This document shows, piece by piece, positions 20,420 through 21,874 of a stretch of 32,000 nt of DNA (positions are counted from its first letter, which is position 1; each line of letters starts with the position of its first letter). The DNA is from Candidatus Thorarchaeota archaeon. Its GTDB lineage: Archaea > Asgardarchaeota > Thorarchaeia > Thorarchaeales > Thorarchaeaceae. Under the pieces are notes generated by a model. That model did not search any database and was not told where the DNA came from. It saw only the letters and a program-made list of their open reading frames with translations. A program made the position numbers and the translations under genes. The stretch covers positions 60,001 to 92,000 of the forward strand of contig PRDJ01000001.1 of the NCBI GenBank assembly GCA_003345555.1, in the 5' to 3' direction.

Positions 20420-21874
20420 ATGAATACGAAAGATTCGGCGTCAAGAGCAAGCGTCACGTTACGAAAAGGCTTCTCCTTTCAACCAATGAAGCGGCTAATG
20501 AGAACAGAGGACCTTATCCCAATCAAGTCTAAGCTCCTAGGTAACGGAATGTCCGTGAACTTCAGAGGAACAGACTATGGTATCATCTATCCTGACGAGG
20601 TTTGGAAGGCTACGCCCACCGACACGCGGCGTGCCCTCAAGGACAATCTTGCTATGGCAACGACGATGCATTTGCCAATGATATTCCCCGGTTCCGGGGT
20701 AGACTATGATTCGGGTCGTCCTTTGCTTGAGCCTTACTTCATGTTGAACTTCTGGAAGGACATACCATCCGTCACGGAAGCGGACAAGACTGACACGGCA
20801 GAAGCAATTCGCAAGTGGTACAGTATAGAATACAGATTTGAAGATCAAGCAGTCGTATACCCATCCCCGGACCCTGTCGAGTCGCCTTGGAGAGCAGTTG
20901 TCGGGCTGAGCTTTGGCAAAGACAGTCTGCTCACCTTCGCAGTTGCCAAAGAGATAGGTCTTGATCCTGAAGCAGCGTATGCAGTGGAGCAGAGTATGGC
21001 ATACGAGGAGAAACACAAGGCCAATCTCGCAATCGGTTTCAAGAAGGAATTCGGAAAGCAGCTGCACATTCTAAAGCATGATACTGGCAAACTGAGAGAT
21101 TACAGGTATCTAGGTCTCCGTGAGTCAGATTTTGGCTGGGGTCTTCAGTCGACAGAATATGCTCTGGATCTGATACCCTTTGCATACTTCTACAACGCCG
21201 AATACATGCTTTTCGGCAACGAGCAGAGTTGTGCCGCGACCTATATGGAACCTGATGGCAATTGGCTCGTGAATCCCTGCTATGATCAATCGCATCTGTG
21301 GACGATTCACATCGATCAAATAACACAGGCATTCTCTGGCCGCGTCGTGCGAACGGGTAGCCTAATCGAACCTCTGATGGACATGATGGTACAGCGTATT
21401 CTTGCTCATCGCTACCCCGAGATGGCGAAGTATCAAATGAGCTGTTTCACGAGAAATGAAGAAGGCCGGGACTACCATTGGTGCCACAACTGCGCCGTGT
21501 GTGCGAAAATGTACCTGCTGTGCGTTGGATCGGGTATCAATCCTGAAGCCATAGGGCTCAAGCAAAATATGCTGCGTGCTGAGAGCAAGCGGTTCTTCAC
21601 CATGTTTGGCGGAAGATCGGACATGCCTTATGCAAACACGGACATTAGCATCGACGAGCAGATATTCGCATTCTACTGTGCAGCCAAGAAGGGTGCTCAG
21701 GGCGCGCTCGTCGACGAATTCAAACAGAGCAAGTTCTACCAAGAAGCGAAGGACAGGGAGGACGAGCTGTTCGAGAAGTTCTGCTCTCTTTACGAGCCCA
21801 TATCTCTGCCAAAAGAACTGCGAGACAAGGTCCTATCGATCTACAAGGAGGAACTTTCTACATTCGAGATATGA
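20420..21874 (+). CDS. MurL-like PP-loop ATPase (candidate ATP-dependent peptidyl epimerase)
   Basis: PP-loop LSFGKDS, FGNEQS, VNPCYDQS, SLIEPL and SC-x12-WCHNCAVC, in the same order as MurL motifs recalled from memory (GGGKDS, FSNERSA, VNHQWSK, SLLRPL, SSC...WCGxCPKC). Confidence 0.65.
   Translation: MNTKDSASRASVTLRKGFSFQPMKRLMRTEDLIPIKSKLLGNGMSVNFRGTDYGIIYPDEVWKATPTDTRRALKDNLAMATTMHLPMIFPGSGVDYDSGRPLLEPYFMLNFWKDIPSVTEADKTDTAEAIRKWYSIEYRFEDQAVVYPSPDPVESPWRAVVGLSFGKDSLLTFAVAKEIGLDPEAAYAVEQSMAYEEKHKANLAIGFKKEFGKQLHILKHDTGKLRDYRYLGLRESDFGWGLQSTEYALDLIPFAYFYNAEYMLFGNEQSCAATYMEPDGNWLVNPCYDQSHLWTIHIDQITQAFSGRVVRTGSLIEPLMDMMVQRILAHRYPEMAKYQMSCFTRNEEGRDYHWCHNCAVCAKMYLLCVGSGINPEAIGLKQNMLRAESKRFFTMFGGRSDMPYANTDISIDEQIFAFYCAAKKGAQGALVDEFKQSKFYQEAKDREDELFEKFCSLYEPISLPKELRDKVLSIYKEELSTFEI

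Follow-up and report, generated by a model that had tools for sequence, protein, structure and literature searches.

A gene at positions 20420-21874 on the forward strand of the window, by which we mean the whole 32,000-nucleotide stretch from a Candidatus Thorarchaeota archaeon, encodes a distant member of the MurL superfamily that is not MurL itself. To our knowledge, MurL is the only ATP-dependent one-way peptide epimerase, and it has been studied solely in bacterial cell-wall synthesis. The MurL-like gene is the first of a four-gene cassette of about 4.3 kb, the other members being genes for an ATP-grasp ligase of the D-Ala-D-Ala ligase (Ddl) family, a small GNAT N-acetyltransferase and a pyridoxal phosphate (PLP) enzyme. 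A search of the literature turned up no paper on archaeal relatives of MurL or on the cassette. The reading we prefer, at a probability of about 0.45 and so a little short of even, is that the MurL-like enzyme adenylates the terminal carboxylate of the ligase product and then inverts that residue.

Relation to MurL and to QueC

The MurL-like gene and the parts recognized in it are as follows (all on the + strand).

20420-21874, +: MurL-like gene (P0001), 484 amino acids (aa), an uninterrupted open reading frame (ORF)
20504-20875, +: N-terminal domain, residues 29-152, counterpart of Pfam MurL_N; a beta-meander with helices (pLDDT, the model confidence score, 96.9 when modeled alone)
20885-21544, +: QueC-like PP-loop (adenine nucleotide alpha-hydrolase) core with a four-cysteine (Cys4) ribbon, residues 156-375, delimited by structure superposition
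20909-20926, +: PP-loop SFGKDS, residues 164-169 (GGGKDS in MurL), placed by script
21212-21229, +: FGNEQS, residues 265-270 (SNERSA in MurL), placed by script
21269-21292, +: VNPCYDQS, residues 284-291, family-specific, in place of MurL NHQWSK by profile alignment
21359-21376, +: SLIEPL, residues 314-319 (SLLRPxSEL in MurL), placed by script
21440-21502, +: four-cysteine site S-C-x12-W-C-x2-C-x2-C (SC...WCHNCAVC), residues 341-361, from conservation and QueC superposition
21545-21871, +: helical C-terminal domain, residues 376-484, corresponding to the last part of Pfam MurL_epimerase_C, from secondary structure and conservation

The ORF is a genuine conserved gene rather than a chance reading frame, because it has many relatives in which the motif residues are kept down to 21 % identity. 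The database search returned 357 relatives at E <= 0.001, the top one 91 % identical, and an exhaustive search returned 314 representatives of clusters formed at 50 % identity. Over 64 family members reaching down to that 21 %, the most conserved positions are the motif residues: G166, C342, C355 and C358 are invariant, and K167, S169, E268, Q290, S314, W354 and C361 are conserved in at least 90 %. A preliminary description of this DNA, made from the letters alone, had proposed the same ORF with its SFGKDS loop, and both sets of coordinates were reproduced exactly; the other four motifs that it named (FGNEQS, VNPCYDQS, SLIEPL and SC...WCHNCAVC) were each located in the ORF by script. The AlphaFold2 model, which took the family alignment as input, has a pLDDT of 93.3 and a pTM of 0.91. 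Only the start of the gene is in some doubt. The true start may be Met23 (nucleotide 20486), because about 28 first residues are disordered in the model (residues ~1-28) and are missing from most homologues, which start near residues 23-33. In the nearest relatives the longer frame, from 20420, is kept open.

The relation to MurL emerged from profile comparisons. The sole NCBIfam match of the protein is the MurL equivalog NF041275 (E 1.3e-4), collinear over residues 140-366; a six-frame search of the host genome with this model gave the MurL-like gene 17.3 bits. Other members of the family reach E-values of 3e-9 to 7e-14 on the model, some of them over nearly its full length, and some Bathyarchaeota members carry the automatic name 'MurL family protein'. 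For comparison, bona fide MurL sequences were retrieved by scanning with NF041275 401 genomes of the phylum of a Mariprofundaceae metagenome-assembled genome (MAG), taken as Pseudomonadota. Six genes were obtained in this way, scoring 770-823 bits, with the motifs GGGKDS, SNERSAS, NHQWSK, NGHIP, SLLRPxSEL, SSCN...RWCGxCPKC and HKPFECVGE. The motif order and spacing that the preliminary description had given for MurL match those of the retrieved genes. When a profile of the 64 family members was aligned with a profile of 10 real MurL sequences (hhalign), the probability was 98.8 % and the E-value 8.2e-17 over 297 columns (query 131-446, MurL 139-447), covering both the core and the C-terminal domain; the profile alignment extends into the latter to residue 471. 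Together with the NCBIfam match and the full-length fold described below, this bears out the earlier assignment to the MurL family.

In a maximum-likelihood tree of 10 MurL and 72 family rows the protein falls in a well-supported clade of Asgard archaea and Bathyarchaeia, and a clade from the candidate phyla radiation (CPR) of bacteria nests within the 72-row family. When the member nearest to MurL in the CPR clade served as the seed of a further homology search, that clade alone was reached and not MurL. The Pfam search, with a library that lacked PF26298 and PF26299, assigned the protein to no family; its SPRING1 hit on the cysteine-rich stretch (E 0.045, below the cut-off) was dismissed as chance, as was a fumarate reductase iron-sulfur subunit at E 1.7 in a single-sequence search of the PDB.

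The fold of the core is that of QueC. Residues 156-375 of the model superpose by VIA-align on residues 3-215 of QueC 3bl5_A (Z 14.3, root-mean-square deviation 3.1, 191 residues), which is nearly the whole chain of the Bacillus subtilis enzyme, and equally well on Cap9 9nto_B (Z 14.4). ThiI, TilS, LarE and TtuA come next at Z 9 to 11, and the structural matches at Z 8 to 14 also include NAD synthetase and GMP synthetase. In Foldseek the top ranks go to QatC, QueC and Cap9 (QueC E 5e-4). Around the P-loop the family profile matches TtuA, MnmA and TilS, SFGKDS being aligned with the SGGKDS of TtuA, MJ0690 and MnmA. By profile and model the protein belongs to the PP-loop ATP pyrophosphatase superfamily, with an SxGxDS-type loop at the first strand-helix turn of a Rossmann-like domain. 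QueC is recognized by an SGGxDS loop and a zinc motif C-x8-CxxCxxC (PMC13329287). The four cysteines of the MurL-like protein lie inside the stretch that superposes on this zinc-binding region, and its Cys4 site probably binds zinc as in QueC.

Over its full length the protein looks like MurL. In the ESM Atlas, residues 27-483 align at a template-modeling (TM) score of 0.75-0.76 with clusters in which 100 % of members carry MurL_N (PF26299) and MurL_epimerase_C (PF26298). The share of members with these domains is only 20 % in the Atlas cluster nearest to the protein; by language-model features, 46 of the 60 nearest named clusters are of the MurL_N plus MurL_epimerase_C set. Alignments to MurL_N-bearing proteins begin at residue 27-30, and the matched clusters include natural fusions of a Mur ligase with MurL. 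The predicted structure thus shows the three-part architecture of MurL: an N-domain, a PP-loop core with Cys4 site and a helical C-domain. Taken alone, the N-terminal domain finds its best solved matches among RNase-H-like and ASKHA-like folds at Z <= 5.6 and Foldseek E >= 0.01, which lies below the stated noise level of the tool.

The preliminary description had set MurL against QueC as the comparison by which its family assignment could fail. The outcome is that the core resembles QueC and Cap9 (Z 14), yet the protein has a MurL profile match and none to the QueC Pfam model PF06508 at E <= 1. It should be noted that MurL and QueC are not true alternatives here, because a profile of real MurL finds the same kind of protein: against solved structures it matched TtuA-type PP-loop proteins only, resembling the result with the family profile. 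MurL seems to be a PP-loop enzyme of the QueC kind that carries an additional domain at each terminus. We know of no solved MurL structure and of no catalytic residues established for MurL. As a separate observation, the Atlas holds proteins of about 790 aa from Thermodesulfobacteriota in which a creatininase-family amidohydrolase is joined to a full-length match to the MurL-like fold (TM 0.76). Such a fusion might point to other branches of the family acting on amide bonds.

The joint alignment separates what the two families share from what is private to each. G166, K167, S169, N267, E268, S314, S341, C342, W354, C355, C358 and C361 are kept in both, and P318, invariant in MurL, is found in 81 % of the MurL-like family. 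These common residues would be expected to form the parts that bind ATP and metal and make the adenylate. The motifs NHQWSK, NGHIP and HKPFECVGE are invariant in the 10 MurL sequences. In the profile alignment P286, C287, Y288, D289 and Q290 stand opposite H, Q, W, S and K of MurL, so that P-x-Y-D-Q-S aligns with H-Q-W-S-K, just as the preliminary description had it in speaking of an HQWSK-type motif altered to PCYDQS. Q290 is conserved in 92 % of the MurL-like family. Private to this family are D289-Q290 and a conserved D-E-Q at 412-414, inside the C-terminal helical domain. The comparison thereby sets common ATP and metal machinery apart from private residues, and the latter are the first targets for work on the mechanism of MurL.

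The four-gene cassette

Three further genes lie downstream, the first of them immediately.

21936-22943, +: ATP-grasp ligase of the Ddl family, 335 aa, probably starting a few codons into the listed ORF (Pfam, NCBIfam)
23014-23562, +: small GNAT N-acetyltransferase, 182 aa (Pfam Acetyltransf_1, E 2.8e-12)
23594-24718, -: threonine-synthase paralogue among the fold-type II PLP enzymes, 374 aa, its gene converging on that of the GNAT (Pfam PALP, E 2e-53)

Linkage of these genes was compared over 80 loci from species-representative genomes, divided into three clades by identity to the query. In the closest clade (>= 55 %; 22 loci) the ligase gene is directly downstream of the MurL-like gene in all 22, the GNAT gene is present in 21 of 21 testable loci, and the PLP gene, downstream and convergent, in 21. 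In the Bathyarchaeia clade (40-55 %; 41 loci) the corresponding counts are 39 of 41 for the ligase and 32 of 36 testable for the GNAT, and the PLP gene is found in 38, here upstream. GNAT sits downstream of the ligase gene in both clades. That the PLP gene is placed differently in the two clades and still remains linked argues for a shared function. In the most distant clade (< 40 %; 17 loci, DPANN archaea and others) the ligase is directly downstream in 2 loci, the GNAT is found in 0 of 14 testable loci and the PLP gene in none; 9 of the 17 have an ATP-grasp gene no more than 6 kb away. Three real murL genes have a Mur ligase directly downstream on the same strand. The order of epimerase gene and then ligase gene in the cassette is thus a parallel to murL-murD2, with a ligase from a different superfamily.

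The ligase, the only Ddl-like gene in the genome, matches Pfam Dala_Dala_lig_C at E 2e-31 and solved Ddl and VanA at E 5e-23. On the best NCBIfam Ddl subfamily model it scores 184.7 bits against a cut-off of 243, and it stays below the cut-off of every Ddl equivalog and subfamily model. It keeps all the ATP-binding, Mg-binding and catalytic residues of Escherichia coli DdlB (K97, K144, S150, E180, E187, K215, R255, D257, E270, N272, G276 and S281). The pocket is changed relative to DdlB (H63 to E, Y216 to T or S, L282 to F, V18 to F), and nearly all members of the two closer clades share these changes; both sets of residues carry the catalytic and pocket roles that we take them to have from the DdlB literature. 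Judged by its residues, the ligase looks active with an altered pocket, and by score and pocket together it would not count as a D-Ala-D-Ala ligase in the strict sense.

The best NCBIfam match of the GNAT protein is the streptothricin acetyltransferase Sat4 (E 6e-9, far under the cut-off), and among solved structures it has a weak match to a putative D-alanine N-acetyltransferase. The PLP enzyme passes NCBIfam PRK06381 with 365 bits but reaches only 87 of the 167 bits that the thrC model TIGR00260 requires; a gene that does pass the thrC cut-off sits on another contig of the genome. The cassette gene can therefore be read as a threonine-synthase paralogue that presumably has another role.

A predicted complex of residues 29-484 of the MurL-like protein with the ATP-grasp ligase, computed from alignments, scored 0.15 against a mark of 0.32, which argues neither for nor against an interaction. 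Fused forms were sought among proteins of 848-2420 aa and none was found, which is weak evidence. An apparent MurL-like/ligase fusion of 803-829 aa in one genome (G499; locus L104, G499:C12, 1183-3594) is an artefact, a run of N joining two frames.

As to the borders of the cassette, the gene upstream (17063-20413, +) ends 6 nucleotides before the MurL-like ORF and encodes 1116 aa, with a GNAT domain at residues 63-160 and some 950 remaining residues without a recognized family. It was considered as a fifth member and rejected, since no related locus has it. Further downstream, past the PLP gene, lies a gene for a tetratricopeptide-repeat (TPR) protein (24908-26164, -), which is syntenic (42-63 % identity) only in Thorarchaeota-titled loci and one titled 'uncultured archaeon'; its conservation looks like lineage synteny rather than membership in the cassette. 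Contigs of a wetland metatranscriptome (one RNA library, from a strain 95-99 % identical) fall on 20205-20507, 20529-20754 and 22118-22380. They cover the last part of the upstream gene, the first part of the MurL-like gene and a portion of that for the ligase; one of them, at 20357-20507, spans the stop codon of the upstream gene and the ATG at 20420. These are a weak hint that the cassette is expressed, since carry-over of DNA into an RNA library is possible, and stretches that the contigs leave uncovered are uninformative.

Proposed substrate and chemistry of the MurL-like enzyme

MurL catalyzes an ATP- and Mg-dependent, AMP-forming, one-way L-to-D epimerization of the terminal residue of a peptide (PMC5808125). 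In the characterized case the ligase acts first and MurL second (PMC5808125, PMC8788868). The archaeal enzyme should have another substrate. A search for Mur ligase (Mur_ligase_M) across the host genome, an assembly of 2.28 Mb that is 93 % complete, gave no match, and 12 of 14 control genomes gave one. There being no Mur ligase, the substrate cannot be a UDP-MurNAc peptide. The preliminary description had anticipated a new substrate, and the genome without Mur ligase agrees with it, as does a partner that is a Ddl-type ATP-grasp enzyme and not MurD2.

The four-gene set probably builds a small modified peptide. In the sequence of events that we prefer, the PLP enzyme would supply or tailor an amino-acid building block, the ATP-grasp ligase would link two amino-acid-type units via an acyl-phosphate, and the GNAT would cap the free amine. 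The MurL-like enzyme would then use ATP to adenylate the terminal alpha-carboxylate of the amide-linked product with release of pyrophosphate, and the activated residue would be inverted with release of AMP, as for MurL (PMC5808125). The product would be a small, possibly N-acetylated, D-amino-acid-containing peptide and no murein precursor. Homology, fold, conserved residues of the ATP and Cys4 sites, gene linkage and lack of murein genes are observed; on this ground we infer the adenylation, the kind of substrate, the sequence in which the enzymes act and, most tentatively, the epimerization. Stated in full, the proposal that Asgard archaea and Bathyarchaeia without murein combine a MurL-type epimerase with a Ddl-type ligase to make a small N-acetylated D-amino-acid peptide is one that we regard as possible and leaning to doubtful.

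Several points weigh against an epimerase acting on the ligase product. The two families lie far apart: they are 18 % identical in the profile alignment, and on the tree the 10 MurL rows stand about 2.9 changes per site (SH-aLRT 100) away from the 72 family rows. On NF041275 the protein scores 20.7 bits, where the curated cut-off is 700. Where NHQWSK of MurL has its invariant H, Q, S and K, the MurL-like family has P, C, D and Q, and NGHIP and HKPFECVGE have given way to GWGL and to a non-conserved stretch. The word divergent in the preliminary description was, on all these counts, well chosen. The replaced motifs weaken the case for the same chemistry without excluding it. Their loss is not decisive, because the catalytic residues of MurL epimerization are not known (PMC8788868). 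The nearest solved relatives, QueC and Cap9, make amide bonds and invert no stereocenter. The MurL-like enzyme may act on the substrate of the ligase instead of on its product, and the steps may come in another order. Finally, we know of no substrate, product or activity for any member of the MurL-like family.

The fold of those nearest relatives leads to the strongest competing explanation, in which the same scaffold carries out another half-reaction. Like QueC, Cap9/QatC and enzymes of the asparagine-synthetase type, it would pass the adenylated carboxylate to ammonia or an amine, so that the product is amidated at its C-terminus or gains one more amide bond. QueC and Cap9 activate a carboxylate with ATP (PMC13329287). 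All the best solved matches of the core (QueC and Cap9, then QatC) activate a carboxylate and form an amide, and the MurL-specific motifs are not kept. The product would be an N-acetyl-dipeptide amide or a tripeptide-like conjugate, analogous to N-acetylglutaminylglutamine amide. Synthesis of the latter needs a GNAT plus ATP-grasp enzyme and a PP-loop amidotransferase, so that its enzyme classes are those found together in the cassette. In sequence and whole-protein architecture, however, the protein is nearer to MurL than to any amide-forming PP-loop enzyme, and the QueC Pfam model gives no match. The cassette also has no glutaminase partner, although QueC itself uses free ammonia. We consider amidation somewhat unlikely.

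An epimerase could also work ahead of the ligase. The MurL-like enzyme would then epimerize or activate a free N-acyl amino acid, for example the product of the GNAT, and feed it, D-configured or activated, to the Ddl-type ligase. Ligases of the Ddl family normally take D-amino acids and this one keeps all their catalytic residues, the GNAT is a constant member of the cassette, and its weak solved match is to a putative D-alanine N-acetyltransferase. The only characterized case, though, runs in the opposite order (PMC5808125, PMC8788868), and with a pocket that differs from that of Ddl a specificity for D-amino acids cannot be assumed. This order of events is distinctly unlikely in our judgment. 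Still more improbable is a cassette that makes no free small molecule and instead acts on the C-termini of proteins or ribosomal peptides, much as RimK and LysX do. ATP-grasp ligases and GNATs do include protein-modifying members, and the structural neighbors QatC and Cap9 act on protein termini; against this, the compared loci have no conserved small carrier or precursor gene beside the cassette, and the ligase is of the Ddl type, which uses free amino acids, not of the RimK or LysX type.

A last alternative draws on the tRNA-modifying enzymes among the structural matches. The six-frame search of the genome for QueC (PF06508) gave no match at E <= 0.001, where 13 of 14 control genomes gave one, and QueD (PF01242) was likewise not found in the 93 % complete genome. 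An archaeosine tRNA-guanine transglycosylase is present (488 bits), and the host may salvage preQ0 rather than make it. As QueD is also missing, the idea that the MurL-like gene replaces QueC was set aside. A nucleobase- or tRNA-modifying PP-loop enzyme (a QueC substitute, or one of the thiolase or lysidine-synthase type) with unrelated neighbors would suit a fold and P-loop profile that match QueC, TtuA, MnmA, TilS and ThiI, in a genome that has the transglycosylase and no recognizable QueC, but it is most improbable, given that the whole de novo 7-deazaguanine route is absent and not just one step of it, that the QueC model does not match and no RNA-binding domain is recognized, that the four genes, with their amino-acid enzymes, stay linked in over 60 species genomes, and that the gene is patchy in the phylum, unlike a tRNA-modification gene.

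In sum, the preferred reading remains adenylation and inversion of the terminal residue of the ligase product. If the full proposal of a small N-acetylated D-amino-acid peptide is true, the cassette would provide the first pathway of post-ligation peptide epimerization in archaea, a free-standing relative of the ligase-plus-epimerase logic by which bacteria make the stem peptides of the cell wall, and an archaeal metabolite not seen before, for instance one that serves as osmolyte, as signal or in the envelope. Archaeal D-amino-acid peptides would then arise by an undescribed route. Should the family turn out to amidate or ligate, the scaffold of MurL would be one on which more than a single chemistry can run. 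In either case the comparison reveals a large sister family of MurL that is fixed in a four-gene set in two archaeal clades without murein.

Distribution, and comparison with known systems

The MurL-like family is found in Asgard archaea, Bathyarchaeia, DPANN archaea and CPR bacteria. Within the phylum of the host the gene occurs in 36 of the 301 genomes sampled, 9 of the 90 of high quality, and 24 of the 76 of its own family; the cassette is accessory rather than housekeeping. Identity is 60-65 % among records labeled Thor-, Hermod-, Hod- and Odinarchaeota and Bathyarchaeia, and this level of identity suggests that the cassette is exchanged among sediment archaea. DNA nearly identical to that of the window is present in wetland metagenomes of two studies. 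The archaeal type of cassette is also carried by several public MAG records, L017 (CAVQRL010000018.1), L042, L045 and L081, which are labeled Actinomycetota, Patescibacteria, Krumholzibacteriaceae or Gammaproteobacteria; one of the contigs is 729 kb long, and the homologues are 34-63 % identical to the archaeal gene. The bacterial labels or the bins of these MAGs may be wrong.

Elsewhere in the window, a reading frame at 26308-31929 (-), open at the window end, encodes more than 1873 aa with many bacterial thrombospondin type-3 calcium-binding repeats (TSP3_bac, E 6e-143) and a weak match to the calcium-binding domain of binary-toxin B/PA; the product is probably a surface protein. Two ORFs, 3649-5358 (+; 569 aa) and 6230-7228 (+; 332 aa), have no Pfam match. 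The former follows a gene for an ABC-transporter ATPase, whose stop codon it overlaps, and may encode the ABC permease.

Among known systems the closest comparison is with MurL. The two proteins are homologous over the core and the C-terminal domain and share a three-part fold (TM 0.76) and a length of about 450 aa, the GKDS loop, the N-E pair, the S...P motif and the SC...WCxxCxxC cysteines; in both, the gene lies directly upstream of one for an amide-bond ligase on the same strand. They differ in the partner, which in the archaeal case is a Ddl-type ATP-grasp enzyme and not a Mur ligase of the MurD2 type, in the added GNAT and PLP enzyme, and in a host whose lack of Mur ligase implies a substrate other than a UDP-MurNAc peptide. 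The partner ligase, for its part, departs from Ddl in its sub-cut-off score, its changed pocket residues and the lack of a murein pathway to feed; with Ddl and VanA it shares the family, by Pfam, NCBIfam and solved structures, and the catalytic residues.

With QueC (7-cyano-7-deazaguanine synthase) and its relatives in defense, Cap9 and QatC, the likeness is that of the core, which superposes, of the PP-loop and of a four-cysteine site at the place of the QueC zinc site. The MurL-like protein differs from QueC in having SFGKDS for SGGxDS, a cysteine spacing of x12 for x8 and two additional domains, one N-terminal (about 125 residues) and one C-terminal (about 110), in matching no QueC model (PF06508), and in its setting: a genome without QueD and neighbors that are a ligase, a GNAT and a PLP enzyme. 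The pairs of an ATP-grasp and a MurL-like gene in CPR bacteria and DPANN archaea, finally, belong to the same protein family. Those clades go without the GNAT and the threonine-synthase-like PLP gene, whereas the set of Asgard archaea and Bathyarchaeia is fixed at four genes.

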